Below are positions 7,089 through 61,685 of a stretch of 64,000 nt of DNA, piece by piece. The stretch lies in NCBI GenBank assembly GCA_049976425.1, contig JBMFIG010000001.1, forward strand, positions 1 to 64,000, given 5' to 3'. Under the pieces are notes generated by a model that saw only the letters and a list, made by a program, of their open reading frames with translations, ran no database searches and was not told the origin of the DNA. Made by a program: the position numbers and the translations under genes. Position 1 is the stretch's first letter; each line of letters opens with the position of its first letter. This DNA comes from Thermoproteus sp. (GTDB lineage: Archaea; Thermoproteota; Thermoprotei; Thermoproteales; Thermoproteaceae).

Positions 7089-9471
7089 ATATATCTTTAG
7101 TCGTTGCTTCAGGTCTTCCCGAGCTACGCAAGAGCTCTATGACCCTCACGTCGACTCCATTGGCCGCTATCTCTCTGGGCAGATCGCCGGTCTGCGTCGC
7201 CACCACTATCTGGTACTCAGAGCTGAGCGACGCGATGAGGCCCGCCAGCGACGATCTGACGTTGGGATCCACATAGGGCAGAGGGTCGTCGAGCAGGAGG
7301 AAGCCCAGCTTGGGACCCAACAGCCTGCGCATGGATATCACGAGCGAGAGAGCCGCCGCCAGCCTCTGCCCGTCGCTGAGCTTGGAGATACCCACGACGT
7401 TTCCGTCGGCTAGCCTAGCCTCAACCTCATACGCCTTGTCCCTCAGCGTCAGCCTCAACGACTCGATATCCCTATACGGGTATATCTTCGAGAAGTTCCT
7501 CCACAGCTCGTCCTCTATCTCCTTAATTATCCTAGATCTAACATTATATTTTAATATATCTATTTTATTTGTTATATTAGAGAATCTATTATATGCATAC
7601 ATATACTTCTCCAGCTTAGATCTCAAGGAGTCGAGCTCCTCGTCTACGCTAGCCAGAACCTCCGAGAGCCTTCTCAGCTCGTCGTATACGTCCGCCTTCC
7701 TCCTCCTCGTCCTGTCAAGCTCCTCGGAGATCCTCCGGAACTCCTCCTCGGCCTCCAGAGCCGCGCCGCTTAGGCCTAAGTTCTTGAGCTCCCTCTCCAA
7801 GCCCTCCAGCTCCTCGCGGAGCTGCCTTATCCTAAGAGCCTTGTTGTACCTCCTGACCACCTCCTCTATGGCTTCCGGAGTCACGTCGTTTAGGAAGCCC
7901 GCCAACAGCTCGAGGCGGCGCGAGATCTGGGACGACGACTTGGCGGCTTGGTCCAACCTCGCCTTGATTTTCTCCTCCTCGCCGGCCAGCCTCTCCAGCT
8001 CCTCCCTGGCTTTAAGATACTCCGAGACGGGCCCGAGCAACGACGCCATCTCCTTGTAGGCGCTCTCCAGGGCCTCCAACTCCTCCCTGGCCTTCTCCAG
8101 CTGCTCGAGCTCCTGCGAGTACTCCCTCTCTATATCCTTCAATCTGCTGGACGCGACATCCCTATCCAACTTGCCGCCGCATACGGGACACCTCTCGGCG
8201 CCTGTCTCCAAAACGTACAGGAGGATGTACCTCAACGACGAGGCGTAGTTGGCCCTTCTCTCAAGCTCCTTGACCTTCTCCCTCATCTCGTCTAGCTTTA
8301 TCTTGATCTCTTCGGGGGGCCCGTAGCGCGCCGAGATCTCCTTGAACCTCTTGTAGGCCTCCCCGAGCTGGTCGACCCTCGCCCTAAGCCTCGAGATCTC
8401 CGCCCGTATCTCGTCCAGTTTAGCCGCCAGAGACTTCCTCTGGGCCTCGGCCGCCGAGAGGGCCTCCTCAAGAGAGCTCTTGACCTTGGCGAGCTCCCTA
8501 TACGCCTCTTGGAGGAGCTCCGCCAGTTTGGCCGCGTCGGGCTCCCGCGATATCCTCTCTATCATCTGCGGATCTATCATGTGCTCGAACTCCGACATGA
8601 CGCCGACAAACCTATCCCTCAACTCCTCTATCTGTCCCAGCTCCGAGGCGTAGGAGTAGCCGGACTCCTCGAGCAACTCCAGCTCCGACTTGGCCCTATA
8701 ATAGGCGTTTATCTTGTCCTGGAGACTCGACAGCTTGTCCACATATCTACGCCTCTCCTCCAAGAGCTCCCTATATCTCGACGAGAGGTCGGCCTCCCGC
8801 CGCGTGAGGCCCTCAAGCTCCCTCTCGAGCGACGCCTTGACCTCCTTCAACTTAGACAGACCTCCATACTTCTCTATTATATCCCTATATTTCTCGTAAT
8901 ATGATATTTTTATTCTAATTTTTTCTATTTCTTTCATTATATTTTTTAATATATTATTTATTATTTTCTGAGTGTTATCTAATATATCGATCTGAAGTAT
9001 TTTATCTATCAGCGAGGTTCTCTTAAGCCTATCGCCGTGGATGAAGTCCTCGAGCGCGTAGTGGGATATATAGATCACCCTGTCGTAGTCGTCGCTCGTT
9101 ATCCCGGTCAGCTCGGCGAGCGCTCTCTCGGCGTCTTCGTCGGTATATCTGCGGTCGTCCAGCCTAAGCTCTAGGCGGCTCCGGCCTCCCCTCCCCACCG
9201 ACCGCCTCACCAGGGCTTTTCTGGACCCGTCGGTCAGCTCCAGCTCCACCAAGGCGCTGTCGGAGTTGAGGTTGATCAAGTCCGCGAGCCTCGCTATCCT
9301 CTGCCTGACCTCCAGTTCCTTTCCGAATAGGGCGAACTCAACCGCCTGCAACAACGAGGATTTGCCGGCGCCGACTCTGCCGACGATGGCCGTCACCGGC
9401 GATAGCCGGAATTCGTACTCGCCTTCGTAGACCTTGAAGTCCCTTAGCTTAATCCTCGCGATCCTCCACAT
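7072..9471 (-). CDS. Arcadin-4, SMC/Rad50-like ATPase
   Basis: Walker A GRVGAGKSS, long coiled coils, central CPVCG hook, LSDGQR signature, LLLDDP Walker B; position in the Arcade cluster. Confidence 0.85.
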   Translation of the reverse strand: MWRIARIKLRDFKVYEGEYEFRLSPVTAIVGRVGAGKSSLLQAVEFALFGKELEVRQRIARLADLINLNSDSALVELELTDGSRKALVRRSVGRGGRSRLELRLDDRRYTDEDAERALAELTGITSDDYDRVIYISHYALEDFIHGDRLKRTSLIDKILQIDILDNTQKIINNILKNIMKEIEKIRIKISYYEKYRDIIEKYGGLSKLKEVKASLERELEGLTRREADLSSRYRELLEERRRYVDKLSSLQDKINAYYRAKSELELLEESGYSYASELGQIEELRDRFVGVMSEFEHMIDPQMIERISREPDAAKLAELLQEAYRELAKVKSSLEEALSAAEAQRKSLAAKLDEIRAEISRLRARVDQLGEAYKRFKEISARYGPPEEIKIKLDEMREKVKELERRANYASSLRYILLYVLETGAERCPVCGGKLDRDVASSRLKDIEREYSQELEQLEKAREELEALESAYKEMASLLGPVSEYLKAREELERLAGEEEKIKARLDQAAKSSSQISRRLELLAGFLNDVTPEAIEEVVRRYNKALRIRQLREELEGLERELKNLGLSGAALEAEEEFRRISEELDRTRRRKADVYDELRRLSEVLASVDEELDSLRSKLEKYMYAYNRFSNITNKIDILKYNVRSRIIKEIEDELWRNFSKIYPYRDIESLRLTLRDKAYEVEARLADGNVVGISKLSDGQRLAAALSLVISMRRLLGPKLGFLLLDDPLPYVDPNVRSSLAGLIASLSSEYQIVVATQTGDLPREIAANGVDVRVIELLRSSGRPEATTKDIFAGKD

Positions 9472-9625
9472 AGATCCCCCACTGCGAGAGGATTTCCTTC
9501 ACCTTCCCCCTGGCCCCCTTAGGGCCCGAGGATCTATACGCCCTGATTATATCCATTACTATATCTATGTCCGAGCCCTCCAAGATCTTCCTTGCCTCCT
9601 CCTCGATTATCTTGAAAATATCCAC
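9449..9625 (-). CDS. Arcadin-3 (58 aa; missing from ORF track)
   Basis: GTG start, MDIFKIIEEEARKILEGSDIDIVMDIIRAYRSSGPKGARGKVKEILSQWGIYVEDRED*; lies between arcadin-2 and arcadin-4. Confidence 0.75.
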   Translation of the reverse strand: MDIFKIIEEEARKILEGSDIDIVMDIIRAYRSSGPKGARGKVKEILSQWGIYVEDRED

Positions 9626-9654
9626 GTACGTATCGCGGCTTGTTTATATTTACG

Positions 9655-12366: not shown

Positions 12367-13122
12367 GTGATCTTGCGCGACGTGGAGGACTTAATATACA
12401 AAGCCGCCTATGGCCGACGGCGCGAGATCTTGCTCATACTATATAGCGAGGGCGCTACCAGTTTAAATAAGCTCAGAAGCAGGTTGGGCGTCTCGTCGTC
12501 GGCGCTTTTATTCGACATATCTGCGCTCGAGGCTCTGGGGCTTATCAAGAGGGACGGCGGCTTCGTCGAGCTGACCGACGAGGGGGTAAAGGTGGCGTCT
12601 ATCCTATTGTCTGTGGCCCCTCTGAAGAACCTGTCGATACTGGAGGCGCTGGGGCTACGCCCGTTCGTGGTCCCCATGCTCGCGTCGCCGTACCTCAACG
12701 CGGTCGCCGCGTTGTTGTTAGTAATATGGACGGCGTCTATATATGTCTCTAAGTCGGCACTAATAGGTATTATATATAGTTATATTTTTACTAATATTTA
12801 TAATATTTTATTTATTTCTATTTTATCTTTTATTTTTATTTTATTCTCAATTTACTTTATTACACATAGAAGAGTTCTTTTAACTCATATAATAATTGGT
12901 TTATTTCCATTATTAATTTATCCTTCAATTTCTATTATAATAGAAAATTATAATATTCTATATGCATTAAAATTTATATTGTTATTACTATCATGCGGCA
13001 CGCTGTCCACTGTGACCTCTTATGATATGGGTTCCAAATACGAGACCGCGTTATTGGCCTACCTTACAGGTATGTTCGTGATCCCTATACTTGTTTACCT
13101 AGTATTACATGTTTATATATAA
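12367..13122 (+). CDS. wHTH (ArsR-like) protein fused to a multi-pass membrane domain
   Basis: RRREILLILYSEG...LELTDEG HTH followed by ~5 hydrophobic helices. Confidence 0.7.
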   Translation: MILRDVEDLIYKAAYGRRREILLILYSEGATSLNKLRSRLGVSSSALLFDISALEALGLIKRDGGFVELTDEGVKVASILLSVAPLKNLSILEALGLRPFVVPMLASPYLNAVAALLLVIWTASIYVSKSALIGIIYSYIFTNIYNILFISILSFIFILFSIYFITHRRVLLTHIIIGLFPLLIYPSISIIIENYNILYALKFILLLLSCGTLSTVTSYDMGSKYETALLAYLTGMFVIPILVYLVLHVYI

Positions 13123-13633
13123 ACCACAAGAAGATAGCTATGTAACTCTAAATCTACTATCTAGAATAAATGGTAAATTTGATATATGTGTAGATGTAGG
13201 CGCCGGCTCGTGTATACTCACGCGCACGTTGGGCAGACTCTGCAAGCGCGTCGTGGCCGTGGATATAAACCCCTACGCGTGCGCTGGATGTAAGGAGTAC
13301 GACGTGCTGTGCGCGCACGGGCTCTCGGCCATATCTAGAGCCGACTTAGTGGTCAGCAACCCGCCTTATCTGCCGCCCGAGGAGCCGCCCGTGGATTTGG
13401 AGGCAGTAGCCATCTACGATTACGGGCTTATCCACCACATATTGAGGTGGGCGTTCGCCTACAGGCCGCGCCTGCTGGTGTTGACGTACAGCACCTTGGG
13501 CAGGGCCGACGCGATCGAGGACGCGGTGTCGGCGCTAGGCAGAATAGTGGATAGGGAAGTCGTCCACCGGTTTTTCGAGGATATCGTGGCTATTGCTGTC
13601 GAGCCTCTGCGCCCAGTCTCTGGAAGTTCTTGA
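13109..13633 (+). CDS. HemK/PrmC-like SAM methyltransferase
   Basis: YKPQEDS, DVGAGS and SNPPY motifs. Confidence 0.85.
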   Translation: MFIYKPQEDSYVTLNLLSRINGKFDICVDVGAGSCILTRTLGRLCKRVVAVDINPYACAGCKEYDVLCAHGLSAISRADLVVSNPPYLPPEEPPVDLEAVAIYDYGLIHHILRWAFAYRPRLLVLTYSTLGRADAIEDAVSALGRIVDREVVHRFFEDIVAIAVEPLRPVSGSS

Positions 13634-14597: not shown

Positions 14598-14709
14598 GGT
14601 GTTATCTTGAAGACCTATATATAACTATTTATTGCATATACTCATTCCCTGTATATATATACAATCTATATGATATAATAAATAATATTATTTTTCTTAA
14701 ATAAAATAT

Positions 14710-15813
14710 TTAATCTATAAATTTATTGCCTCTAATTTTATCTTTTATATAGTCATGAAGATATTTTAACCCATGTGCCGACAAGGCCTCTATTTCAACT
14801 TTCTTCTTGGTCTTCAGGAAATACTCCAGCTCCTTCTTCCAGACGTCGTTCTGGAACCATGGGTATTTGAGGAGCTCTTGCGCCCTCTTTACGTCTCTGT
14901 CGGTAGCTCTTATCACGAACTGGTCGGGTATCTTGTACCTCTCTATGTCGAGAGGTGCCACCCCGAGGAACTTGGCCTTAGGCGTCGCCAGCCGCTCGCT
15001 CTCGTAGCTGAGCTTTATCGAGCCGCTTTTGTATACGGAGTAGATGTAGATTCCGTAGGGGTCGCCGTCCGTCAGCACGTAGACCGGCAACTTGTACTCC
15101 TCGTTAAGCCTTTTGACAAACCTCCTAGTGGCTCTGTCGGGCATGCCCTTCGCGGTTATTAACACCGCGTTTTCCTGCGACCAGAACTTCTCCCTGACTA
15201 GACGTTGGAATATCGCGTCCTTTTCTATGACCAAGACGTAGGAGGCCTCGACCTTGACTATCTCCAACGCATCGACATTGACGGGGAGGCTGAGGGCCGT
15301 CTCGCCGAATTTGGAGGCGTCCAGCTCGTATCCCTGGGAGCGCACCACTATAGGGCCCACCACCTTGCCCTTCACGTCCGCGCTGATGCCCATCTCCTCC
15401 CTCAATATATTCGTCGCCACCTCTATATCTTCTATAACTCCGTTGGACTCCGCCTGCTCGTCCCAGGTGTTCTCCCTATGGACTCTGCCCAACGGGTCCT
15501 TGAATACTATCGTGTGTTTTCCGTTGTAGTAGAGGTCGCGTATCGTCGGGTACACGTCGGCCCTCATGGCGTCCACTATCAGCCTCAACATCAACACGGT
15601 CTGCATAAACCTCCTGGACTCCTTCACGTCGAGGAACCTCCTGTGTATCTTCTCGGGGCCCAGCCTCAACATCCTCGCCTTCTCGTCCCATATGGTATTG
15701 CTGAGGGTGCGGGCCGGTATCTCCATGACGGGCTCCTTGAGGCTCAACACCGATTTCGCGAGCTCGGTCCCCCACTCCTCCAACCGCTTTAAGAAATCAG
15801 CCCGGCTGCTCAC
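14710..15813 (-). CDS. top6A: DNA topoisomerase VI subunit A
   Basis: TIRDLYY catalytic Tyr, IEKDAIF, TDGDPYG, KVEIEAL. Confidence 0.95.
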   Translation of the reverse strand: MSSRADFLKRLEEWGTELAKSVLSLKEPVMEIPARTLSNTIWDEKARMLRLGPEKIHRRFLDVKESRRFMQTVLMLRLIVDAMRADVYPTIRDLYYNGKHTIVFKDPLGRVHRENTWDEQAESNGVIEDIEVATNILREEMGISADVKGKVVGPIVVRSQGYELDASKFGETALSLPVNVDALEIVKVEASYVLVIEKDAIFQRLVREKFWSQENAVLITAKGMPDRATRRFVKRLNEEYKLPVYVLTDGDPYGIYIYSVYKSGSIKLSYESERLATPKAKFLGVAPLDIERYKIPDQFVIRATDRDVKRAQELLKYPWFQNDVWKKELEYFLKTKKKVEIEALSAHGLKYLHDYIKDKIRGNKFID

Positions 15814-16063: not shown

Positions 16064-16345
16064 TCATCTCCTCTTGGTGTCGAACGGATTCTCCCTCGAC
16101 GATATCTCCTTTATCAAGTCCTCCAGCCTATCTAATATCTCGGCTCCTTTAGGCGTCAGCGTTATCTCCGCGCCGTCCCTCACCAAGCCTCTCTCGACTA
16201 AGTAGTCTAGGTACCGTTGGAAACTGCGGTAGTTGAGCCCGGACATGAGGGCGAGGCTACGCCTCTTCCTGACCCCGTCCCTTATCAACGCAAGTATTCT
16301 GGCTAACACGTAGAAGTCAGGTAAGAAGTCTTCTTCCCCGCTCAT
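16064..16345 (-). CDS. Small winged-helix protein
   Basis: LALMSGLNYRSFQRYLDYLVERGLV...ITLTPKG. Confidence 0.8.
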   Translation of the reverse strand: MSGEEDFLPDFYVLARILALIRDGVRKRRSLALMSGLNYRSFQRYLDYLVERGLVRDGAEITLTPKGAEILDRLEDLIKEISSRENPFDTKRR

Positions 16346-16946
16346 AGAGCTCCATGGATCTAGCCACCGCGTCGTTCACGCTCCCTATGGATCTCCAATA
16401 AGCCAGCAACGATGCCGACACCGCCGTGTGGAGCCCGCCGATGATGGCGAGAGCGTAGAAGGGCCAGCTCAGAGGCGATTGGAAGTAGCGATCTAGTATC
16501 TGTATCTGGAATAGCATCGTCTTGTTGTGAATAGTGGCGTTGTATACGACGATCCACAAGGCCGTCCCCTTGCTGACGTCCACAAGCCTCAGAACAGTCG
16601 AGGGAGGCCAGAAGAAGTAGAGGTATAGGGATAGGGCGCCGACGGCTAACAAGGTAGCGTAGGCCGTGACAGCTAGAGGGACCGAGGCCGCGCAGAACCG
16701 CCGTCTTCTATAGAGGTATCCGAAAGCGCCTATATCGTCCCATCTAGACTGCAGAAATCTCGGCGCCATGGCCACCGCCAATGACGAGGCAGCCAAAGCT
16801 AGGTACCATATGCGGTCAATCCGCCCAATGACGTACAGGTAATGGATGAGGAGGGCCAGCCAGGGCATCGCCAGAGATCCGGCAAATATAATAAATCTTC
16901 TTCTACATTTATCAGCATATGTTGAAGGACTAAATCTTTTATCCAT
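16317..16946 (-). CDS. Hypothetical membrane protein (~4 TM)
   Basis: Four hydrophobic segments; overlaps the wHTH gene. Confidence 0.7.
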   Translation of the reverse strand: MDKRFSPSTYADKCRRRFIIFAGSLAMPWLALLIHYLYVIGRIDRIWYLALAASSLAVAMAPRFLQSRWDDIGAFGYLYRRRRFCAASVPLAVTAYATLLAVGALSLYLYFFWPPSTVLRLVDVSKGTALWIVVYNATIHNKTMLFQIQILDRYFQSPLSWPFYALAIIGGLHTAVSASLLAYWRSIGSVNDAVARSMELYERGRRLLT

Positions 16947-16976
16947 AAGAATTTAAAAATATAAGTTTTAAAAATT

Positions 16977-17696
16977 TTACCAAATGTATGCCGTTAGAGT
17001 TCCTTGGTATGTTACTGTTGCTGTAAACGGATTGAAGACTATGGCATACGCGGTATACACGCCATTAAGGTTAAACCCGTAGCTCAAACTACCTCCCCAG
17101 CCGCAGTACCCCTCGCCGTTGCCTGTCTCCGCATAGAAGTACCCAACGCACAGCCCCGTGGACGTAGGGCTCCACGATAGGTTGAACTGGAGAGCCAAGG
17201 CGCCTGGGTATGGGCCGTACATGTCCTGACTTCCTGGCGGTAGAGTTCCGCCTATGTTCTGGGAGACGGCTATGATCTGCGGCCTCGTCGACTGCGTATT
17301 CGTAGCGTCGACTTTTCTTATGCCCGAACTGTGTATGGTCACGTTGGTGAGAACTATCTCGGTCCCGTTGTCAAAGATTACCTCTATGGCCTTGATAGTG
17401 CCGTTCTCTATCACTGCTTTCAGCCTCACCTTTATCACGTTATCCGTCGTTGTAAAGTTGGGCACTTTATCGGCTATCCTTATGCCTGAATCGCGATACA
17501 TGTGTAGCTTCAGAACCGCGAATACTGTGCCGTTATCGTACAGCGCTATCAACTTATCGCCCCTAACCAACAACTCCACGTGAAACGGCTTGGGCCCAGC
17601 GCCTGACAGCTTATTGACAGATCCCGCATACGCCAGATATGCGGTCAACAGAGCGGCTATCGCCACACCGACCACTACTGCGTAGATCTTCTTCAT
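16977..17696 (-). CDS. Secreted or membrane-anchored hypothetical protein (likely start MKKIY at 17696; alternative 17708)
   Basis: Signal peptide, duplicated DNGT...H..SGIR..D motif, C-terminal aromatic/Gly-rich beta domain with two Cys. Confidence 0.75.
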   Translation of the reverse strand: MKKIYAVVVGVAIAALLTAYLAYAGSVNKLSGAGPKPFHVELLVRGDKLIALYDNGTVFAVLKLHMYRDSGIRIADKVPNFTTTDNVIKVRLKAVIENGTIKAIEVIFDNGTEIVLTNVTIHSSGIRKVDATNTQSTRPQIIAVSQNIGGTLPPGSQDMYGPYPGALALQFNLSWSPTSTGLCVGYFYAETGNGEGYCGWGGSLSYGFNLNGVYTAYAIVFNPFTATVTYQGTLTAYIW

Positions 17697-17728
17697 GCCG
17701 CCGCTCATTTTTTGATCAATAAAAAATT

Positions 17729-17766: not shown

Positions 17767-19353
17767 CTAGCCTTGTTCGGCCGCCTCTTCCTTTATCGAG
17801 GACGCCATGGACAAGACGTGTTTGGCGAGCTCCTCCACTGTGAGGCCCAGCTTGTTCTCGATCAGCTTGTAGAGGCTCTTCGCGAGCGCGTCCTTGTCGA
17901 GGCCTGTCACTATCGCCATGTTGTGGGCTATTTCGTCAACGTACTTGGCCAGCGACGTGTACTTGTTGAGGAGCTCCAACTCCCTCTCCTTCCTAGAGAG
18001 GTAGATCCTCAGCTTCCTCGCGGCGTCTCTCAACGCGAGCTTCATCTCCTCCTCTATCTCCTGTATTTCGGCTATCGCCTCCTTGCCGGCCGAGGCGTAG
18101 GGAACCTTCGTGGAGCACACGTGTATTATCACTGCGACGGGGGCGGGGAACTTAACCTTGTAGTTCTGCCAGTTGAACTCGTCGACTACTTTCCTCGCGA
18201 CGTCGGCCCCCTCGTCGTAGAGCAACGGGATCTTGTTGGCGTATCTGAGGAGTATCGGCTTGTCCACCGGAATTATCTGCCCTCCCCAAGCTATAGCCGC
18301 CTCGACTATGAAGGGATGTCCCGAGTAGCTACTGGGCTTCCTAGTCACCGCGAAGACGGCCTCTGCGCCCAGGATAGATTTGGCGCCTACCTCCAAGAGC
18401 TCGGGCCCGGCGGGCGAGAGCCAGTCGGCTCTCGGCCTCCGCCAGCCCTCGTAGGCCTTCATCTTCTCTACCAGAAGCACTATCTCGTCTTGGGTGAGGG
18501 AGCCCACGGGCTTATTGGGGTCCAACGCCGCCCATTCCAGGAAGGATCGCGCCAGTCCCTCCCCGACGCCGTCGAAGTTCTTGATCAGAAATTCGGCGAG
18601 AGTCGCCGTCTTGTTCTCCGAGATCATCTGCTTCACTGTGTCTACGTCCACGCTCTTGGGGTGGGGCAGGCCCTCCTCAGGGGGAGGAGGCATCTTGATG
18701 GTGCGCCTTTTCAGAAACATCTCCATATCTGGTCCCTTGAAATATATCTCTGCATATGGCGATATTATTGCAGTTCTTCTTAGATATTCTTCTATTCTCT
18801 TCTTGGAATTCAGCCAATTACCCTCTATAACCACTTTCACCGCAGTGCCGTGCCATTTATATTTATTTTCATATTCTTTCATATCAACTATAATGGGCTC
18901 ATTCTTTGTAGTATCTATCATTATTCTATATTCATATATCTTGTCTGAGCGGACCGCCGCCGATCTTACCGAGATCGGCCGGTTCGTGGTGCTCTGCGCA
19001 TACAACACTACCATCTTGAGGCCGAGGCCGAAGACGCCTCTATGTTGCTTTATCTTGTACTTAGAGCTGTAGAACACTCTGCCGAAGACGTTGGGTATTT
19101 CGTGGCCCGGTATCCCCACCCCGTTATCCTCCACATATACAGAATACCAGCTCTTCGCTTCGTCCACAGGCTTTATGGTAATAGTTATGTTGGGCAGAAT
19201 GCCGTAGGGCTCTGTGGCGTCTAGGCTGTTCTCGACGAGCTCTCTGACAGTCTGGTACATCGCCCTCGCGGGGTTTTGGAACCCCGCTATCTCCCTATTT
19301 CTCCTGAACCATTCAGCTACAGGAAGGGCCTCGTAGGCGTAGGTAACGGTCAC
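17767..19353 (-). CDS. top6B: DNA topoisomerase VI subunit B
   Basis: GHKL motifs RELVENSLDA, EDNGVGI and GVFGLG; RYANKIPLL. Confidence 0.95.
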   Translation of the reverse strand: MTVTYAYEALPVAEWFRRNREIAGFQNPARAMYQTVRELVENSLDATEPYGILPNITITIKPVDEAKSWYSVYVEDNGVGIPGHEIPNVFGRVFYSSKYKIKQHRGVFGLGLKMVVLYAQSTTNRPISVRSAAVRSDKIYEYRIMIDTTKNEPIIVDMKEYENKYKWHGTAVKVVIEGNWLNSKKRIEEYLRRTAIISPYAEIYFKGPDMEMFLKRRTIKMPPPPEEGLPHPKSVDVDTVKQMISENKTATLAEFLIKNFDGVGEGLARSFLEWAALDPNKPVGSLTQDEIVLLVEKMKAYEGWRRPRADWLSPAGPELLEVGAKSILGAEAVFAVTRKPSSYSGHPFIVEAAIAWGGQIIPVDKPILLRYANKIPLLYDEGADVARKVVDEFNWQNYKVKFPAPVAVIIHVCSTKVPYASAGKEAIAEIQEIEEEMKLALRDAARKLRIYLSRKERELELLNKYTSLAKYVDEIAHNMAIVTGLDKDALAKSLYKLIENKLGLTVEELAKHVLSMASSIKEEAAEQG

Positions 19354-19448: not shown

Positions 19449-20357
19449 CTATGCGTCTGCCTGGTCTTGGGCGCCCGACCTGCACCGAGCTATTTTCAAT
19501 ATCTTAGTAGCGGCGTCGGGCGCGTCGAAGCCGAAGACGTACCCGTTGGCCTCTATGCCTATCCCTCCCCTATCGAAAACCACGTCGTAGGCGCGGCTAC
19601 GCATGGCCGACGTTATGTTCTCTATGCTCTCCTCCTCGGTATTGCTGGGGCCCACTACAGCGTACTTGTAATTATATTTTTTAATGCAATCAATTAAACC
19701 TTCGTCATATTTTATATTTATGACTGCTTTTATATCCTTATGAATATTATTTATAGCTAATATAAGTTTGCCTAGAAATTTAGCGCCCCATAGCTGGGGC
19801 TCGGATGTAGTCGCGAGGGTTTCCCCCACGACCGAGATACGGCTGGGATATCCGATAGGGCCCTCGCCGCTGAGCTCTACTATATTCATTAAAACCCTTG
19901 GGACTAAATTTATTATATATTTATTGTTTTTTAACATATTAAAACTAATAATTATTCTATTTTTAACATCATTTATAATTGATATATTTTTACATACATC
20001 GCAGTCTTTTAGGTAGGGCGCCACGCGTTTGTGGAACTCGCAGAACCTCAACGACGAGAGTAGGGACAACACGAAGTTGTTCAGGTACTCCACGGCCTCA
20101 GGGTAGTTCTGTTGATCCACCGCGGCTATAACGACATCGACAACTCTGTCTACCTCCTCTCTGGATAGCCCTACCTCTGCAAGCCTCCGCTCATAGTGTC
20201 CCCTATCCAGTTTAAGATATGCGCTCACGGCCGGCTGGGATATGCCGAGTATCTGGCCTATCCTGCTCTGCGAAAAGCCGCGGCGCGAGAGCTCGTGCGC
20301 TATCAATCCCTTGAGCGGCTGCATCACTCTCTCCGACAAGAGCTCTAGGGGAAACAT
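19449..20357 (-). CDS. HTH + ThiN (thiamine-phosphate synthase-like) regulator, ThiR-like
   Basis: GFSQSRIGQILGISQPAVSAYL HTH; LVPRVLMNI, AVINIKYD and DRGGIGIE ThiN-like motifs. Confidence 0.8.
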   Translation of the reverse strand: MFPLELLSERVMQPLKGLIAHELSRRGFSQSRIGQILGISQPAVSAYLKLDRGHYERRLAEVGLSREEVDRVVDVVIAAVDQQNYPEAVEYLNNFVLSLLSSLRFCEFHKRVAPYLKDCDVCKNISIINDVKNRIIISFNMLKNNKYIINLVPRVLMNIVELSGEGPIGYPSRISVVGETLATTSEPQLWGAKFLGKLILAINNIHKDIKAVINIKYDEGLIDCIKKYNYKYAVVGPSNTEEESIENITSAMRSRAYDVVFDRGGIGIEANGYVFGFDAPDAATKILKIARCRSGAQDQADA

Positions 20358-20461: not shown

Positions 20462-21397
20462 GTGATAAGCCACGTAGCGTTGCAGTTAGGAGAGCGTAAG
20501 ATATCCGGCGAGCTGACCCCGCTGACATTTGTAACAGGATCAGGTAAAAGCGTCTTCATAAATTCTATTTATTTAATTTTATCTAATATTGGGTCTAAAA
20601 TACCAAAAATTTATTATAATAAATTTAATATATCTATAAAAATAAATAATAAAGTTTTTTCATTACAAAAAAACGGCAAAATTTATAGACAGATATTCGA
20701 GGACGGAGGCAGGAAAGTCGCGATAGAGTACGGAGTCTTGAACGGCTCCCGTATCAGTAGGGTGGTGGAGCCGTTCGAGCTTACGATAAAAAACGCGGAT
20801 ATCCTGATGCCTCAGGTAGACGTCGCCGAGCACGTCTCCATACTGGCCGACGAGGAGGTCGAAGAGGTGAACAGGCTTCTGGGCGAGTTTAGAAAGACCT
20901 TCTCGCTGAAGGCTATCTTGTTGGGCCCGTATATAGATCCGAGGACGTTCCACGACGCCGCCAAGGCTACGGGCGTCCTCAAGCCCAACGGAAGCAACCT
21001 AGTCGGCGTGTTGGCCAAGCTAGCCCTCAAAGCCCCTGATGCCTACGACAGGCTCAGGGCATCTTTCAGGAAAAAGGGCATTAAACTCGCCGTGGGGCTG
21101 GCGAGGGAGGGCGTTCTAGCCGGCGTGGCGTATATCGGCGGCGCCAAGATCCCGATCTCTAGGCTTCCCTGTAGCCTGAAGACCGCGCTGGCGTTGGCCA
21201 CCGCAGTCATAACAAGGCCCGACCTGCTACTCGTCGACAACTTCGATTATTGTTTCAACGAGAACGTGGCCGAGATGCTGTCCAGCTACCTCAACGAGCA
21301 GATATCCAGAGGTCAGATAGTGGCTGAAATACACAGGCCCGACGTCGCCGAGCTGTTCAAGACCCAGTATAAGTCAATACTTTCGGTATCTCTTTGA
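20462..21397 (+). CDS. Divergent ABC/AAA-type ATPase-like protein
   Basis: Truncated P-loop FVTGSGKS and LLLVDNFD Walker-B-like motif. Confidence 0.6.
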   Translation: MISHVALQLGERKISGELTPLTFVTGSGKSVFINSIYLILSNIGSKIPKIYYNKFNISIKINNKVFSLQKNGKIYRQIFEDGGRKVAIEYGVLNGSRISRVVEPFELTIKNADILMPQVDVAEHVSILADEEVEEVNRLLGEFRKTFSLKAILLGPYIDPRTFHDAAKATGVLKPNGSNLVGVLAKLALKAPDAYDRLRASFRKKGIKLAVGLAREGVLAGVAYIGGAKIPISRLPCSLKTALALATAVITRPDLLLVDNFDYCFNENVAEMLSSYLNEQISRGQIVAEIHRPDVAELFKTQYKSILSVSL

Positions 21398-21406: not shown

Positions 21407-21613
21407 CTACACGTATACTTCCAATTCCTGAAGGATTTTGACTACCTTCTGAAGCTCATTGAGCTCTCTCTGGGCTATTCTCAAAGCCTCCTCGACCACT
21501 TCGCGCGTGGGTCCCCCCACCTCGAACTCGTACAGGACATAGTTCAGAATCGCCCTAGCGCCTAGGCCCTCCACCTCCTTCAAGCTTTTCCTGAGAACCT
21601 CTGCCGGATCCAC
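21407..21613 (-). CDS. Small helical hypothetical protein
   Basis: 68-aa ORF overlapping the DUF54-like gene; coding-like composition. Confidence 0.6.
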   Translation of the reverse strand: MDPAEVLRKSLKEVEGLGARAILNYVLYEFEVGGPTREVVEEALRIAQRELNELQKVVKILQELEVYV

Positions 21614-22022
21614 GCAACCTTACAAATGTCTCTATTAAGCTATTTGCCGCGGCGCGGGGCACCCTGACCTCTACATGGATTACGTCGTCGCCGCTGTCGA
21701 GCCGCAGAAGTCCTTGTAAGGCCTTCTGCTTATTAAATCTGATAAATAATTTATTTTTATATATATTTATATTATTTAACAATATTTGAAAATCTAAATT
21801 ATCTATTGATTTAAGTATATTAGCGAAGATAGTTGTGGCGTAGCAACCGACGACCTCCGCGTACATCATGGTGATGACATTGCCGTAATATCCTGTTACC
21901 TTCTCGATGTGTATCTCGCCCGGCAACACGTTCCTCAACGCCTTGGCGACCCTGTCGCAATCCTCCGTGGAGTGGCAATAGGCGACTGCCTTTATCGACC
22001 TAACAGGACAAGGCTCCTGCAC
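21555..22022 (-). CDS. RNA-binding protein (DUF54-like) of the exosome/proteasome neighbourhood
   Basis: HSTED, GYYGNVI, LFIRFNKQ and GDDVIHV motifs. Confidence 0.8.
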   Translation of the reverse strand: MQEPCPVRSIKAVAYCHSTEDCDRVAKALRNVLPGEIHIEKVTGYYGNVITMMYAEVVGCYATTIFANILKSIDNLDFQILLNNINIYKNKLFIRFNKQKALQGLLRLDSGDDVIHVEVRVPRAAANSLIETFVRLRGSGRGSQEKLEGGGGPRR

Positions 22023-46719: not shown

Positions 46720-46947
46720 ATGCCGCGGTGCTCCGTCTGCGGACGCGACGTCAATGTGGCCAAGATAGCTTACATCCGCGGCAACATATTCGTGTGCGAC
46801 GATTGTTTTCCCCAGTATTATGTCAAGGAGATCTGTAGGGTCGTCCAGAGAAGGCTTAAAGGCGAGAACCCCGTCGCGTGTATATACTGCAAATACAGGA
46901 AGATATGCGACGAACACGTCTCGAAGACGCTGAAGTCATTGGCCTAA
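46720..46947 (+). CDS. Small Cys-rich zinc-binding protein
   Basis: CSVC, CDDC, CIYC...C in 75 aa. Confidence 0.7.
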   Translation: MPRCSVCGRDVNVAKIAYIRGNIFVCDDCFPQYYVKEICRVVQRRLKGENPVACIYCKYRKICDEHVSKTLKSLA

Positions 46948-48075
46948 CACGGCCAGGAAGAAGCCAGGCACGTCGAAGACGTTGGGCATAAAGCGTCTGC
47001 AATCGCCGCATCCCCAGCCTTCCACGGCCCTCGGCACGTATATCGACACAGTCTTCAGCCCGAGCTCCTCGACGGCCCACAGCACGTTTCCCTCGTTTTC
47101 TGTGAACGTGAGCGTGCAGGTCGAGTATATTACGTATCTGGCCAACCTGGCCGCCGCGGCTATGAACTGCCTCTGGTAGCGCGCCAAGGTCTCTACATCT
47201 CTCATAGAGATCGCGTGGCTGAGCTTAGGCCTAACGCCTAGATCACTACAGGGAGGATCTACGAGCGCCACATCGCCCCTCAAGAACGGAAAATCCCTAT
47301 CGACATACCGGCTGTCGTGCACCAACACGTCGACGAGATGCTCTAGGCCCAGCCTCCTGGCGTTTTCGATTATCCGCTCCACCTTAGGCCTCGACCGGTC
47401 GAACGCTATCACGTGGATGGACAACTGCGCCATGTGGGTAGTCTTCCCGCCCGGCGACGCGTTTAGGTCTATCGCCCTTCTGGCGCCCAAGGCGGCGGCC
47501 AGTCTGCCCACCCACATGGCCGGCATGCTCTGGTCGTAGAAGTAGCCCCTCGCGAACTCCTCGAGCTCCCTGAGCTTCGGAGCCTCGTAGACGCTCCGGA
47601 GGGTCCTCACTGCGAGCCCCCGCCTATATTTCACCATGTCGAACCCGTCCATCTCGGCGACGCCGTAGGCCACGATCTGTCCATCCGGGCTAACCACGTT
47701 CACCTCGTCGCCTCTACGTACACCGGGCGCCTTGAGGACGCCCGGCGCGTAGAGATCGCTGCCCATATAAACGCTCTCGGCGGCCCGTTTCTCGGCGACG
47801 ATCTCCTTCCTGGCCGATGGCACGTCGAAGGGCCCCCTTATTGGGATCCACAGAGCCTCCTCTAGGTACTCGTCGCGGTATACGGAGAACCTCTTGGACA
47901 GCCGTTCGACGAGCTCCTCCGGCGTTATCTTGGCAGTGTTCGCCCTGATGTAGTATCTATGCGGAGGCCTCTTGATCGCTAGGAGAATTCTCTCTATCTC
48001 TTTATCGCTTATATATTGAAGAAATTCGTTATATAAATCTTTATCTATTCTTATTCCATTAAAATCTATCCACAT
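46936..48075 (-). CDS. PUA-domain RNA m5C methyltransferase (RsmB/NSun6-like)
   Basis: PUA insert (GSDLYAPGV), ASPGGKT, DPPCS, YSTCT. Confidence 0.88.
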   Translation of the reverse strand: MWIDFNGIRIDKDLYNEFLQYISDKEIERILLAIKRPPHRYYIRANTAKITPEELVERLSKRFSVYRDEYLEEALWIPIRGPFDVPSARKEIVAEKRAAESVYMGSDLYAPGVLKAPGVRRGDEVNVVSPDGQIVAYGVAEMDGFDMVKYRRGLAVRTLRSVYEAPKLRELEEFARGYFYDQSMPAMWVGRLAAALGARRAIDLNASPGGKTTHMAQLSIHVIAFDRSRPKVERIIENARRLGLEHLVDVLVHDSRYVDRDFPFLRGDVALVDPPCSDLGVRPKLSHAISMRDVETLARYQRQFIAAAARLARYVIYSTCTLTFTENEGNVLWAVEELGLKTVSIYVPRAVEGWGCGDCRRFMPNVFDVPGFFLAVLGQ

Positions 48076-48410
48076 TAAGAGTTTTTAATTAGCTGGGCGA
48101 GAAGCTCCTTAGCCTTGACCGTGGGATTGGATCTGACGAGGCGCCACAGCTCAGAGCTTTCGTCCAATACATACCTATAGCTTCTGTTCTTGCCGAGCCC
48201 CTCGGTGTTAGCCCTTACTAGATTCTGCCTCGATAGCCTTTTCAGAAGCCGGGCGGCCCGGAGTATAGTTCTGTGATCGGAGCCGTATCCCGTCATTTTA
48301 GCTAAAGAAGCCGCCCTTATGCTTATGACTTTTCCCTTTGAATTTTTTATCAACGACACTAGAGCATCTACAAGTCTACGTTCCAAATGATCCAAGTCCA
48401 TATGCCTCAC
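48075..48410 (-). CDS. Basic winged-helix-like protein
   Basis: SIRAASLAKMTG...RLLKRLSRQNLV...YRY; coupled to the methyltransferase gene. Confidence 0.65.
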   Translation of the reverse strand: MRHMDLDHLERRLVDALVSLIKNSKGKVISIRAASLAKMTGYGSDHRTILRAARLLKRLSRQNLVRANTEGLGKNRSYRYVLDESSELWRLVRSNPTVKAKELLAQLIKNS

Positions 48411-60323: not shown

Positions 60324-60392
60324 TTTTAAGCGTGGCCGCCTCGGCAGATCCCCCGTGCGCGAAATATTAAAATACGTGCGGGGCCTTTGCCG

Positions 60393-61685
60393 ATGGCCGA
60401 GGTAAGCCCTAGGCGGTACTGGTCGGCGGCAGTCTCGACTATGTTGATCTGGGGTCTTGAATACTACGACATAATACTGTTCTCGAGCCTTGCTACGGTT
60501 TTCCAGAAGCTGTTCTTTCCCGAGAAGACCCAGTTGCTGGCTGCCGTGACCACTTGGGGCGCCTTCGCCATTACCTATCTGGCGAGGCCTCTAGGCGCGG
60601 TTATCTTCGGCCATATAGGCGATAGGTACGGCAGGAGGACGTCGACTGTGCTCGACGCGCTTGCTGTGGGAGTGGCCGGGCTCGCCATAGGCCTTCTCCC
60701 GACGTACCAAGACATCGGCATAGCGGCCCCCATAGCCCTATATCTGCTGAGGACCGTGCAGGGGCTCGGTATAGGCGGCGAGGCCGGCGGCGGCGCCACT
60801 TGGGCCCTCGAGCTGACGCCGAAGAACATGCGGCCGTACGTCAACGGCGTTATGTACTCCGGCCTCTCTTGGGCGGTCTTCCTCACGTCGGCCATGACGT
60901 TGTGGGCCAAGAGCTTCTTCGGCACCGAGGGCTTCACGGCGGTCGGGTGGAGGGTCTTGTACATAGTTGGCGTGGTGCCCGCGCTCATAGCCTTGGCCAT
61001 AAGGGTCTTCGGGTCGGAGTCGCGCGAGTGGCTGGAGGCGGCGCGCAGAGGCAAGATAGTCAAAGCGCCTATAGCTAAAATATGGAGCTACTGGATTAAT
61101 TTTGTTATATTAATATTAATAAATCTAGGACTTACATTATATTACTATGGAGGATCTGGTTATTGGACATATATAATGCCGAATATAGTGGCGCCTAAGC
61201 TCGGCCTAAGTAAAGACCTTGCGTACAGCTTCTCGCTGGAGCTCACCATGTACGGCGGCCTCGGCGCTGTCGTAGGCGAGTTGCTGAGCGGTTTCCTGAT
61301 ATCGGCGGTGGGAGTGAGGCGCGCCTTCATTCCTCCCTCCCTCGGCCTCCTCGTAGTGGCGCCTCTCGCGGCATACCTCGCCTTCTCCCTAAATAGCTAC
61401 GCGGTTTACGCCTCCTTTGCGATGGGCCTATTCTTCGGCCTCGCCGCGGCGCCTCAGACCCTTTACTTCGTCGAGCTGTTCCCGACCGAGGTCAGATGGA
61501 CGGCGGTGTCGCTGGGCTGGAACATAAACGCGTTGCTAGGCCCTCTGGGCTCCCTCGCGGCCCTGCTCCTCATAATGGAGGCTCCGGCGTCTGTAGTTTC
61601 CATAGCGATATACGGCTCCCTGGTCGCTCTGGCCAGCGCCCTGCTTACGATAGCCGGAGCGCTCATAAGGCCGAGAAGCTATTAA
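60393..61685 (+). CDS. MFS metabolite:H+ symporter
   Basis: EYYD, RPLGAVIFGHIGDRYGRR, QGLGIGGE, ELFPTEVR. Confidence 0.92.
   Translation: MAEVSPRRYWSAAVSTMLIWGLEYYDIILFSSLATVFQKLFFPEKTQLLAAVTTWGAFAITYLARPLGAVIFGHIGDRYGRRTSTVLDALAVGVAGLAIGLLPTYQDIGIAAPIALYLLRTVQGLGIGGEAGGGATWALELTPKNMRPYVNGVMYSGLSWAVFLTSAMTLWAKSFFGTEGFTAVGWRVLYIVGVVPALIALAIRVFGSESREWLEAARRGKIVKAPIAKIWSYWINFVILILINLGLTLYYYGGSGYWTYIMPNIVAPKLGLSKDLAYSFSLELTMYGGLGAVVGELLSGFLISAVGVRRAFIPPSLGLLVVAPLAAYLAFSLNSYAVYASFAMGLFFGLAAAPQTLYFVELFPTEVRWTAVSLGWNINALLGPLGSLAALLLIMEAPASVVSIAIYGSLVALASALLTIAGALIRPRSY

Follow-up and report, generated by a model that had tools for sequence, protein, structure and literature searches.

AT-rich patches in the window

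The window, a 64,000-bp stretch from the first contig of a Thermoproteus sp. assembly, has a GC content of 55.6% and an N count of 0. When G+C is counted per 60 nt, the distribution is bimodal: most values gather around 35/60, fewer form a separate rise near 14/60, and a minimum at ~17 divides the two. Thermoproteus is a hot-spring archaeon. An earlier note on this DNA had described sharply bounded AT-rich tracts inside GC-rich genes, and the six counts of G+C per 60 nt given there (5, 3, 6, 4, 8, and 9) were all exact when recounted. A two-state HMM with our own parameters called 30 patches in the window, 26–234 bp each and 3151 bp in total, at 8–25% GC. These are listed by coordinates and strand; genomes used for comparison carry G numbers.

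5567..5598, no strand: AT tract of 32 bp between divergent genes 3822..5546 (-) and 5601..6317 (+), GC 0.12, not in an ORF; promoter-sized, borderline member
7523..7608, -: in SMC_N-type coiled-coil ATPase gene 7072..9471 (arcadin-4-like), codons ~620–661; GC 0.16, with AT-richness shared by G007, G003, and G002
8866..9009, -: second patch in the SMC_N-type gene 7072..9471, codons ~151–210; GC 0.21–0.31 in six genus genomes with data
12761..12994, +: longest patch of the window (234 bp), in HTH-plus-membrane protein gene 12367..13122; sister-genus GC 0.41–0.54 at these codons
13086..13187, +: where genes 12367..13122 and 13109..13633 overlap, straddling two ORFs
14616..14769, -: intergenic spacer plus last ~20 codons of top6A (14710..15813); codons 348–364 at GC 0.14–0.18 in six genus genomes, 0.43 in the basal G004
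16884..16989, -: over the junction of genes 16317..16946 and 16977..17708 (HMM)
18855..18942, -: in top6B (17767..19353), codons 134–167; GC 0.22–0.29 in 7 genus genomes, 0.42 in G002 (probable loss), 0.36–0.44 in the sister genus
19663..19782, -: in ThiN-domain gene 19449..20357, codons 193–238; same codons in 8/8 genus genomes, sister genus normal GC
19878..19999, -: second patch in ThiN-domain gene 19449..20357, codons 115–157; same codons in 8/8 genus genomes
20555..20697, +: in gene 20462..21397 (no Pfam match), codons 24–75; GC 0.17–0.27 in 7 genus genomes with data
21730..21822, -: in PF01877 RNA-binding protein gene 21555..22022, codons 63–104; GC 0.17–0.23 in 7 genus genomes with data
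27031..27164, +: 3′ end of gene 26489..27079 and the spacer after it; probable gain within the genus
29795..29895, -: first of four in gene 29606..31444 (612 aa, no Pfam match); probable loss in one genome
30330..30417, -: second of four in gene 29606..31444 (HMM, orthologue GC)
30738..30839, -: third of four in gene 29606..31444 (HMM, orthologue GC)
31098..31208, -: fourth of four in gene 29606..31444; GC 0.40–0.41 in G002
33124..33198, -: in FtsX/MacB-type permease gene 32196..33332 (HMM, Pfam)
33338..33363, no strand: AT tract of 26 bp between divergent genes; promoter-sized, borderline member
33488..33578, +: first of five in MMPL transporter gene 33369..35957 (HMM, Pfam)
33676..33796, +: second of five in MMPL gene 33369..35957 (HMM)
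34993..35091, +: third of five in MMPL gene 33369..35957, in a membrane helix, young; GC 0.17–0.18 in G000, G007, and G006 vs 0.51–0.56 in G005 and G003
35217..35375, +: fourth of five in MMPL gene 33369..35957 (HMM)
35394..35458, +: fifth of five in MMPL gene 33369..35957 (HMM)
39682..39766, +: in gene 39387..39857 (no Pfam match; HMM)
42510..42612, +: in small gene 42486..42809 (weak V-ATPase_G_2 match, below Pfam cut-off); GC 0.48–0.55 in G006
42915..43032, +: first of two in V-type ATPase subunit C (AC39) gene 42806..43855 (HMM, Pfam)
43311..43422, +: second of two in V-type ATPase subunit C gene 42806..43855; among genomes with data, low only in G000 and G007
48009..48091, -: over the junction of RsmB/F-PUA methyltransferase gene 46936..48075 (5′ end) and gene 48075..48410 (3′ end) (HMM, Pfam)
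61095..61148, +: in MFS transporter gene 60387..61685 (HMM, Pfam)

Every site listed in the earlier note was recovered by the HMM, together with four that it had not listed (5567–5598, 13086–13187, 29795–29895, and 33338–33363). The first of these, a single promoter-sized tract, means that the span 1–7500, described previously as lacking patches, is nearly but not quite free of them. The placement inside intact ORFs held for 23 of the 30, which lie wholly in an open frame, while the remaining 7 lie at junctions or between genes. Pfam matches back the earlier gene names for top6A, top6B, V-ATPase subunit C, and the RsmB/F-PUA methyltransferase, but the gene named arcadin-4, which adjoins a crenactin cluster, is backed only as an SMC_N-type ATPase, and the gene named pcc1 was not identified in the gene assignment of the window.

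Composition and native origin

Patches are AT-rich at all three codon positions (GC1/GC2/GC3 of 0.24/0.19/0.15), and the residues that they encode run to I, L, Y, K, N, and F. The frame is kept, as had been claimed in the earlier note, and there are no indels. Dinucleotide odds ratios are those of the background (AA 0.89 vs 0.90, TA 1.12 vs 1.14), and alignments to patch-free orthologues, including sister-genus segments of normal GC, are gap-free, codon for codon. Given this native signature and the collinear normal-GC orthologues, gene-scale transfer is no explanation, in agreement with the earlier note. The alignments show that patches are native sequence recoded where it stands, codon for codon. 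In the MMPL patch at 34993..35091, which is collinear with its patch-free orthologues, residues have moved from A/V/S/H to I/L/F/N.

Number and placement across the genome

Two-state segmentation of the 1.84-Mb genome yielded 351 patches: 195 lie within ORFs, 81 between genes, and 75 across gene ends, so that 156 of the 351 are not confined to an ORF. Median length is similar in the three classes (85–109 bp), and patch edges are step-like, with GC falling from 0.53 to 0.20 within 12 bp. Genes with internal patches include those for DNA polymerase B, threonyl-tRNA synthetase, and topoisomerase VI. Across the coding DNA of our own 1829 heuristic gene calls, 5210 windows of 60 bases held at most 12 G+C. 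This number fell to 0–5 when codon order was shuffled within genes, to 0–22 when synonymous codons were redrawn from genome usage, and to 344–489 when synonymous codons were shuffled within genes with the protein kept (five replicates each). Chance and amino acid need are ruled out as the origin of the patches by these three nulls, the largest of which reached 489. An open frame is kept in 124 of the 197 patches of at least 90 bp, compared to a shuffled mean of 26 and maximum of 37.

A patch is a feature of DNA, not of protein, as all codon positions are AT-rich, lengths are similar within, between, and across genes, and the null that preserves the protein falls far short. Composition overrides both codon choice and residues, which agrees with the earlier view that the feature acts at the DNA level: DNA composition dictates the codons, and also the residues where the protein tolerates change. 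Patches are also not merely unconstrained DNA, since intergenic regions are mostly 45–65% GC and a patch is present at just 178 of 1789 gene starts (~10%). They do appear to concentrate where constraint looks weaker, with patch density negatively correlated with regional background GC (rho -0.44) and flank divergence of 5.2% vs 4.3%.

Sharing and turnover within the genus

The same codons are AT-rich in 8 genomes of the genus, in proteins down to 62% identical, and the patches occur in three complete and several draft genomes, which excludes an artefact of one assembly. Two further genus genomes carry 23–31 patches per 60 kb and a complete relative carries 401 in total, whereas two genomes of the sister genus have 0–1 per 40 kb. 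Similarly, 45-base windows with at least 42 A/T number 468–1822 in 9 genus genomes and 2–344 in 18 sister-genus genomes. Patch abundance thus varies about four-fold within the genus. The orthologous segments in the sister genus have a GC of 0.38–0.50 against 0.53–0.58 in their flanks.

GC of orthologous segments is bimodal, with peaks at 0.20–0.25 and 0.45–0.55 and a trough at 0.30–0.40, indicating that a segment is either 'on' (~20% GC) or 'off' (~50% GC). When read on a tree of the genomes, this pattern points to both gain and loss of patches within the genus. Gains are placed at codons 539–574 of the MMPL gene and at codons 181–193 of gene 26489, the latter because patch 27031..27164 is low only in G000, G007, G008, and G006. 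Losses are placed at top6B codons 134–167 in G002 and at codons 515–551 of gene 29606 in G006, where the GC at 29795..29895 is 0.43 in that genome only. Tests for compensating gains and losses gave no significant compensation (P = 0.057 and 0.18). The genus-wide trait, the two states with gains and losses, and the patches beyond genes had not been foreseen in the earlier note.

Substitution dynamics

In a genome ~5% diverged, 257 patches of 60 bp or more could be aligned, and every one is just as AT-rich there. In this single unpolarised genome pair, with patches defined in one genome and heuristic gene calls, two-fold synonymous sites have a GC3 of 0.165 and a divergence of 0.0684 in patches, compared to 0.828 and 0.0683 in the background, while amino acid differences reach 5.16% in patches vs 3.28% outside (1.6 times faster). 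By our own calculation, mirror-image GC3 with unchanged flux is expected if mutation is unbiased and a fixation bias of ~1.6 reverses its sign between patches and background; the two neutral-rate estimates then agree (0.100 vs 0.103), and the flux is missed by ~1.45-fold if one of the compartments is taken as neutral. As long as a patch is 'on', substitution biased in the AT direction keeps it at a compositional equilibrium of its own.

Since patches are at their own equilibrium and synonymous divergence is not raised, the localised GC-to-AT mutational process suggested earlier fits poorly in its simple form of extra cytosine deamination. For non-coding patches, a deamination-only model predicts by our calculation ~9% W/S divergence, ~1.75-fold above the 5.2% seen, and the non-coding transition to transversion ratio is unchanged (6.7 vs 5.9).

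Duplex stability and possible function

Nearest-neighbour calculations for naked linear DNA in 1 M Na+, which ignore bubble nucleation cost, supercoiling, and bound proteins, gave a mean stacking free energy per step in patches of -0.02 kcal/mol at 85 °C and +0.087 at 90 °C, with positive values at 90 °C in 270 of 274 patches but only 5 of 548 flanks. Predicted patch stability thus crosses zero at 85–90 °C while the flanks stay paired. This is the growth range of the genus Thermoproteus.

The patches are discrete, composition-defined, motif-free chromosomal elements of the genus Thermoproteus, ~60–250 bp long, of ~15–20% GC, and about 350–400 per genome. Hundreds of near-pure A/T stretches of ~100 bases thus run through intact, often essential, GC-rich genes across a genus and are actively maintained. 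We did not find a published description of such patches in the literature. Our preferred reading, to which we give a probability of roughly 40%, is that they are selected, easily melted DNA elements. The selected property would be low duplex stability: patch DNA at its melting point at ~85–90 °C, between paired flanks, would offer the first places to open in an otherwise very stable GC-rich chromosome. Opening might relieve torsional stress, admit replication, recombination, or transcription machinery, or allow a chromatin or single-strand-binding protein to bind. Of the DNA-level functions proposed in the earlier note, among them SMC or nucleoid loading and replication initiation, only a melting zone gains physical support, from predicted stacking energy. 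Neither of the causes it proposed is proven; overall its interpretation is partly supported.

The placement of selected elements looks costly, with essential genes included; if position is flexible, selection should favour cheap intergenic DNA, yet 195 of 351 patches lie in ORFs. Faster residue change, location in regions of apparently weaker constraint, the spread in abundance, and the lack of significant compensation also speak against selection. So does the scarcity of patches in the sister genus, some members of which are also GC-rich and grow near 85–95 °C, which implies that physics alone does not demand them.

A close rival, possible but on balance doubtful, is a non-adaptive, self-sustaining compositional switch, whereby a local mutation, repair, or gene-conversion bias drives and holds AT-richness below a GC threshold. 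The cause could be duplex breathing at growth temperature or failing duplex-dependent correction, and patches would be tolerated damage, collecting wherever proteins or spacers bear it. Two states, step-like edges, and a ~100-bp size suit such a cooperative threshold, and nearly all patches are past the predicted melting threshold at 90 °C. Consistent with tolerated damage, patches arise in segments ancestrally lower in GC, are denser at lower background GC and higher divergence, affect essential genes without a functional theme, have faster-evolving residues, and vary in abundance and position within the genus. However, deamination alone misfits on all three measures above, and pure mutation would need the S-to-W rate raised ~5-fold and the W-to-S rate lowered ~5-fold. 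Unconstrained intergenic DNA is mostly not AT-rich, and losses occur, so the AT-rich state is no ratchet. The sister genus, which grows as hot or hotter, has far fewer patches. No difference was found in NucS or UDG, the two repair-gene families tried.

A role in transcription or as RNA signals, such as internal or antisense promoters, pause or termination sites, or AU-rich unstructured mRNA for ribosome entry or decay, is unlikely. The commonest patch hexamers are TATA-like (ATATAT, TATATA, TATAAA), many patches touch gene ends or starts, and archaeal AT-rich DNA is reported to be prone to cryptic promoters (PMC10883916). Intragenic patches, however, are spread evenly along ORFs and so are not positioned relative to the next gene, and ~10% of gene starts is few for such a role. 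Neither motif enrichment beyond composition nor a fixed orientation was found in the patches, sense-strand asymmetry is ordinary (A 0.43, T 0.38), and the A/T runs of at least 7 that favour termination are nearly absent (4 vs 154 expected).

It is very improbable that the patches are clusters of rare codons, selected because slower translation helps co-translational folding or membrane insertion. AT-ending codons are indeed rare at a genome GC3 of 0.83, and several of the patches code for a membrane helix or coiled coil, but this reading is largely refuted by first and second codon positions as AT-rich as the third, which change residues as well, by the 156 intergenic or gene-end patches of the same length distribution, and by the turnover of positions within proteins between species. 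Mosaic recombination with an AT-rich donor, in-frame mobile-element insertion, or assembly artefact, for which only the joint-like sharp boundaries speak, is refuted by the sharing of patches among complete and draft genomes, the gapless alignments, the genome's own dinucleotide signature, and the absence of a repeat family among patches (best patch-to-patch match E ~1e-7 over 58 bases of two-letter sequence), and we know of no donor with ~15% GC from hot springs.

Comparison with known systems

DNA unwinding elements and stress-induced duplex-destabilised sites occur at origins, promoters, and terminators. Like them, patches are AT-rich tracts of the ~50–150 bp order defined by easy strand separation, not by motif, and their predicted stability crosses zero near growth temperature. 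Known unwinding elements, however, are found in control regions between genes, with one to a promoter or a few to a replicon, whereas patches number 351–401 per genome and, in the genome with 351, 195 run in frame through genes; the comparison concerns composition and predicted melting, not a link to origins or promoters. The A+T-rich island replication origins of fission yeast are 0.5–1 kb long, are situated between genes, and bind an AT-hook ORC subunit. Patches, at ~100 bp and over half in ORFs, differ from them, and the likeness drawn here is in composition and number, not in replication. These island origins are likewise defined by composition, lack a consensus, and number hundreds along chromosomes (PMC7574548). 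The T. tenax genome paper describes the origin as uncertain (PMC3189178).

Local, non-translational selection on codon usage, as reviewed earlier, also lets DNA or RNA signals in coding sequence override global codon preference, but the cases given there appear to be short motifs acting through synonymous sites, whereas patches are ~100 bp of bulk composition with residues rewritten too (PMC8410138). Like isochores, patches combine two-state composition, sharp borders, and a directional substitution process. The isochores in question are the AT-rich fungal ones made by repeat-induced point mutation and those shaped by biased gene conversion; they span kilobases to megabases, occur within repeats or recombination domains, and are destructive to genes. 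Patches, in contrast, are unique tracts of 100 bp that leave the conserved genes around them intact, can revert, and stand at equilibrium.

Extreme-AT patches in the window and across the genome

The window (64,000 bases, 55.6% GC, no N) carries sharply bounded, almost pure A/T tracts of about 100 bp inside GC-rich DNA, referred to here as patches. The G+C content per 60 nt was bimodal, the main mode at 35 being separated by a trough near 17 from a second hump near 14, and the six counts reported in the earlier note for single 60-nt tracts (5, 3, 6, 4, 8, and 9) were exact on recount. Segmentation with a two-state HMM, using parameters set by the analysts (background 59% GC, patch 14% GC), called 30 patches of 26–234 bp and 8–25% GC, summing to 3151 bp. 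These include every site that had been named by eye as well as four further patches at 5567-5598, 13086-13187, 29795-29895, and 33338-33363. Twenty-three of the 30 lie wholly within an open frame, and the remaining seven are intergenic or lie over gene junctions. Host genes with Pfam matches include top6A, top6B, a ThiN-domain protein, V-ATPase subunit C, an MMPL transporter, an FtsX permease, an MFS transporter, an SMC_N-type ATPase, and a PF01877 protein; the gene for the RsmB/F-PUA methyltransferase is contacted by a patch at its 5′ end only. Genes referred to below are as follows, those lacking a name being labelled by their start coordinate.

14710..15813, top6A
17767..19353, top6B
19449..20357, minus strand, ThiN gene
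20462..21397, gene 20462
21555..22022, gene 21555
26489..27079, gene 26489
29606..31444, gene 29606
33369..35957, MMPL gene
42806..43855, V-ATPase subunit C

The window makes up the first 64 kb of contig C1 of a 1.84-Mb assembly in 96 contigs. Applied to the whole assembly, the same segmentation gave 351 patches with a total of 35,561 bp and a median length of 97 bp. With ORFs of at least 100 codons defining the coding class and heuristic gene calls the intergenic class, 195 patches are in an ORF, 81 are intergenic, and 75 straddle gene ends, and the median length is similar in all three classes (85–109 bp). Patch density is over-dispersed (variance/mean 2.6 per 10 kb) and rises as the GC content of the remaining DNA falls (Spearman rho −0.44, P = 2e-8), while patch-to-patch spacing showed short-range clustering only and no regular period genome-wide. 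There are 125 patch-bearing ORFs, 92 with one patch, 25 with two, and 8 with three to five. Outside the window, 12 of the 20 multi-patch ORFs had Pfam matches, including DNA polymerase B, threonyl-tRNA synthetase, tRNA-guanine transglycosylase, an XPD-like helicase, a HerA-like ATPase, a protein kinase, and a glycosyltransferase, and no functional theme was seen among these 12.

Patches exceed chance and amino-acid need

Intragenic patches have GC contents of 0.24, 0.19, and 0.15 at codon positions 1, 2, and 3, encode mostly I, L, Y, K, N, and F, and are evenly distributed along ORF length. Codon shuffling, which the earlier note had put forward as the measure of chance, was performed in three forms, and the 5210 extreme windows observed lie far above all of them, including the null that keeps each protein unchanged. 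Patches therefore exceed both chance and amino-acid need.

Coding windows with 12 or fewer G+C per 60, over 1829 heuristic gene calls (86.5% of the DNA), five replicates per null
Observed: 5210
Codon order shuffled within gene: 0–5
Synonymous codons redrawn from genome usage: 0–22
Synonymous codons shuffled within gene, protein kept: 344–489

An open frame is kept in 124 of the 197 patches of 90 bp or more, compared to a mean of 26 after shuffling, indicating that patches are translated sequence under purifying selection.

Conservation, gain, and loss within one genus

Patches are DNA-level compositional elements that arose in place in native sequence and take two states, and their abundance is specific to one genus, Thermoproteus. 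Conservation of patch positions among orthologues, a question raised from the sequence alone, was borne out for the ThiN gene, in which both patches occupy identical codons in eight genomes of the genus whose proteins are 62–99% identical; the orthologues of two sister-genus genomes have ordinary GC at these codons, with the residues still alignable. The syntenic 60 kb holds 23 and 31 patches in two further genus genomes, and the complete genome of the close relative G007 (1,927,000 bp) holds 401. Per 40 kb, two sister-genus genomes had 0 and 1 patches; samples from five other genera had 0–1 each. One sister-genus genome contained two intragenic extreme windows in 40 kb, so the trait is rare there rather than absent.

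Extreme-AT windows per genome (45-base windows with at least 42 A/T)
Thermoproteus, 9 genomes: 468–1822
Sister genus, 18 genomes: 2–344
Third genus of the family, 2 genomes: 2 and 136
Genus g5, 2 genomes: 0 and 0

Along G007, patches concentrate in hot regions at 0-40, 400-440, 1320-1360, and 1680-1760 kb, and no relation of their placement to GC skew was seen. Counting patches of 60 bp or more, the 80 kb at 1,680,000-1,760,000 hold 46 and the 40 kb at 400,000-440,000 hold 22; many 40-kb bins hold 0–5.

Codon alignments of the window genes from eight genus genomes and two outgroups yielded 64 low-GC segments, 44 after merging of overlaps. The GC content of these segments across the genus was bimodal (n = 363), with 199 values at 0.15–0.30, 38 at 0.30–0.40, and 113 at 0.40–0.60, the low peak being partly a matter of ascertainment because each segment was picked as low in at least one genome. 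Some segments are low in every genus genome with data, for example both ThiN patches, codons 24-75 of gene 20462, and codons 63-104 of gene 21555; others are low in a single lineage (G002, G004, or G006 alone). Read on a tree from 18 genes, in which G004 is basal, followed by G002 and then ((G005,G003),(G006,(G008,(G000,G007)))), where G000 is the genome under study, patches were probably gained at codons 539-574 of the MMPL gene and codons 181-193 of gene 26489, and probably lost at codons 134-167 of top6B in G002 and codons 515-551 of gene 29606 in G006. Patch edges are step-like, with mean GC falling from 0.53 to 0.20 within 12 bp and no gradient over 90 bp, although the two bins closest to the edge are shaped by the segmentation itself.

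The substitution regime holds patches at equilibrium

A directional bias favouring A/T holds the patches at equilibrium, and the proteins accommodate them. This was observed by comparison with G007, which is collinear with this genome and ~95% identical. Every one of the 257 aligned patches 60 bp or longer is just as AT-rich in G007, and 2 of 259 G007 patches had GC more than 0.10 higher in this genome; a slight asymmetry in the pair comparison (135 vs 119) is as expected when patches are defined in one genome.

Substitution between this genome and G007 (one genome pair, own gene calls, patches defined in one of the two genomes, synonymous rates genome-wide; W, A/T; S, G/C)
Two-fold synonymous sites, patches: GC3 0.165, W-to-S 0.041, S-to-W 0.207, divergence 0.0684
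Two-fold synonymous sites, background: GC3 0.828, W-to-S 0.199, S-to-W 0.041, divergence 0.0683
Non-coding patch DNA: GC 0.193, divergence 5.8%, ts:tv 6.7
Non-coding non-patch DNA: GC 0.557, divergence 5.5%, ts:tv 5.9

Since the pair is unpolarised, the ratio of rates is fixed by composition, and the independent facts are the mirrored GC3 and the equal flux. In model calculations, both were reproduced by a fixation bias of ~+1.6 in the background and ~−1.6 in patches with unbiased mutation, for which the neutral-rate estimates agree (0.100 vs 0.103), while models with either the patches or the background neutral missed the flux by ~1.45-fold. Patches also differ from the background in residue differences (5.16% vs 3.28% at ~5% DNA divergence) and in deleted positions (0.52% vs 0.18%).

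Low duplex stability as a candidate selected property

Beyond composition, no hexamer was enriched in the patches, TA-rich hexamers being dominant, and no 10–11-bp AA/TT periodicity (helical phasing) was found. Inverted repeats and folding differed little from shuffled sequence, with a mean longest inverted repeat of 7.08 vs 6.7–6.8 and a single-strand folding energy at 37 °C of −6.56 vs −6.01, giving no sign of hairpins or cruciforms. A/T runs of seven or more were seen 4 times vs 154 expected from shuffles, and runs of eight or more 0 times vs 66 expected, suggesting that homopolymers prone to slippage or resembling terminators are strongly avoided even at 85% A/T.

Duplex stability was predicted from SantaLucia-Hicks nearest-neighbour values for naked DNA in 1 M Na+, a calculation that ignores bubble nucleation cost, supercoiling, and bound proteins. 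Thermoproteus species grow optimally near 86–90 °C. The predicted mean stacking energy per step in patches was −0.13 kcal/mol at 80 °C, −0.02 at 85 °C, and +0.087 at 90 °C, compared to −0.27 for flanks at 90 °C. Positive energies were predicted at 85 °C for 98/274 patches and 0/548 flanks, and at 90 °C for 270/274 patches and 5/548 flanks. On these predicted values, patches would have the lower duplex stability characteristic of DNA unwinding or duplex-destabilised elements.

That low duplex stability is the property under selection seems to us possible, at somewhat less than even odds. Against it, siting inside essential genes looks costly, patches cluster where constraint looks weak, and abundance varies four-fold within the genus. 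There is also no significant sign of compensating turnover, the test for balanced gain and loss within 5- or 10-kb blocks giving P = 0.057 and 0.18, with identical variance sums at both block sizes (observed 1.11, null mean 2.88). If the property is selected, Thermoproteus chromosomes may rely on ~400 motif-free 'thermal breathing' elements, each a 100-bp tract tuned to melt at the growth temperature of the cell and of enough importance to run through essential genes, in which case the proteins would adapt to the DNA and not vice versa. The putative user of the tracts would be an unrecognised DNA transaction, such as an origin-independent start of replication or torsional buffering in a chromosome with reverse gyrase, or alternatively the loading of a single-strand-binding or chromosome-organising protein. 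Taken as a whole, we give this reading a probability of roughly 0.3.

Alternative explanations

The close rival is a switch in mutation, repair, or conversion bias that sustains itself without being adaptive, which we hold slightly less probable, at about one in three. Against it, extra deamination alone fits poorly, its prediction for non-coding patches being ~9% W/S divergence; the bulk of free intergenic DNA is not AT-rich, and patch losses do happen. A pure fixation-bias model referred to intergenic DNA also misses the non-coding patches, its prediction being ~1.5-fold too low, and the non-coding comparison favours neither model.

Transcription or RNA signals are an improbable general explanation. 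The short intergenic tracts 5567-5598 and 33338-33363 do match ordinary promoters, but archaeal promoters (BRE/TATA at a fixed distance upstream of the start) do not account for the 195 intragenic patches, which are spread evenly along ORFs. No Rfam family reached its gathering score anywhere in the 64-kb window, and the public data sets listed as containing 12001-22000 were hot-spring metagenome contigs only, with no RNA set among them.

Import, insertion, artefact, and translational pausing are poorly supported or refuted. The earlier note had argued that gene-scale transfer does not explain the tracts, and this is upheld by their native dinucleotide signature and by collinear orthologues that lack the patch. 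Odds ratios of the W-only dinucleotides match between patch and background (AA 0.89/0.90, AT 1.12/1.08, TA 1.12/1.14), as do most others, the exceptions being GC (1.15/0.99) and CC (1.29/0.99). Codon alignments to orthologues of the genus and sister genus are gap-free with residue homology recognisable within patches, arguing against horizontally acquired or recombinant DNA, and lineage-specific patches aligned to normal-GC orthologues likewise showed no gaps, residue usage moving away from A, V, S, and H and in the direction of I, L, F, and N. As a test for recombination joints, the divergence step across patches was only slightly above random at 300 bp (0.024 vs 0.019), and since flanking DNA is in any case more diverged, the step speaks neither for nor against such joints. 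In-frame mobile or repeat insertions (RPE/REP-like) are rejected by the absence of indels relative to orthologues without the patch, a repeat family by an all-against-all BLAST of 297 patches that returned weak two-letter matches only, and Plasmodium-like low-complexity insertions by the one-for-one replacement of homologous residues, conserved within the genus. Hypermutation tracts of deaminase or RIP-like type are rejected by synonymous divergence equal to background and by the similar non-coding divergence and ts:tv. Rare-codon clusters that pause translation would not shift GC1 and GC2 as well as GC3, nor would they leave 156 of the 351 patches intergenic or over gene ends. An assembly artefact is excluded by the presence of patches in independent genomes of the genus.

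Candidate causal genes

Among 31 genomes, none of four candidates (PF00808, NucS, UDG, and Piwi) separates Thermoproteus from its sister genus. The histone fold PF00808 was found in 0/9 genomes of this genus and 0/8 of the sister genus, NucS occurs in both, UDG is present in 31/31 genomes, and Piwi is in neither. All 14 genomes searched from the other six genera, among them the third genus of the same family, do have PF00808. In G002, a complete genome whose 1822 extreme-AT windows are the highest count of all, no NucS_C match is strong, the best (E 6e-4) falling short of the cut-off; the other complete or near-complete genus genomes match at E 1e-22 to 1e-27. A Piwi (Argonaute) match was found in only 2 of the 31 genomes, G020 and G022, both of genus g5, the one genus in which neither genome has any 45-base extreme-AT window; as an anecdote, this would be consistent with selection against such tracts by nucleases whose targets are easily melted DNA.

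Relation to published work and significance

To our knowledge, no prokaryotic system of this kind has been described. Full-text searches, judged by titles and abstract openings and with subscription-only papers outside their scope, returned no account of such tracts. The parts of the T. tenax genome paper retrieved by term look-ups likewise hold no account of them; the low-G+C regions reported there are only three, extended and kb-scale with G+C below 47%, and the replication origin is given as uncertain (PMC3189178). A review of non-translational pressures on codon usage deals with short-motif signals (PMC8410138).

If the tracts are functional, then in core enzymes of a hyperthermophile a physical property of DNA can take precedence over codon preference and protein sequence alike, and the patches would offer a direct route to asking how very stable GC-rich chromosomes open at high temperature. 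If they are not, they would be a rare and clean prokaryotic example, at the 100-bp scale, of a two-state substitution regime that maintains itself, and would help to distinguish selection on base composition from biased conversion and from mutation bias. In both cases these genomes will be mis-handled by gene finders, codon models, and binning tools, and selection tests on patch-bearing genes will be biased.

Other observations in the window

The first ~2 kb of the window is only 89% identical to G007, and the counterpart of 2030-3825 (genes 2020..2586 and 2555..3583) is absent from G007. Positions 1-3825 appear to be a segment specific to the strain, at the end of the contig. Positions 6426-11908 correspond to the crenactin 'arcade' cytoskeleton cluster. 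In its SMC_N-type ATPase gene (7072..9471), the set of patches differs by species, with two in G000, G007, and G008 and three to four in G005, G003, and G002.
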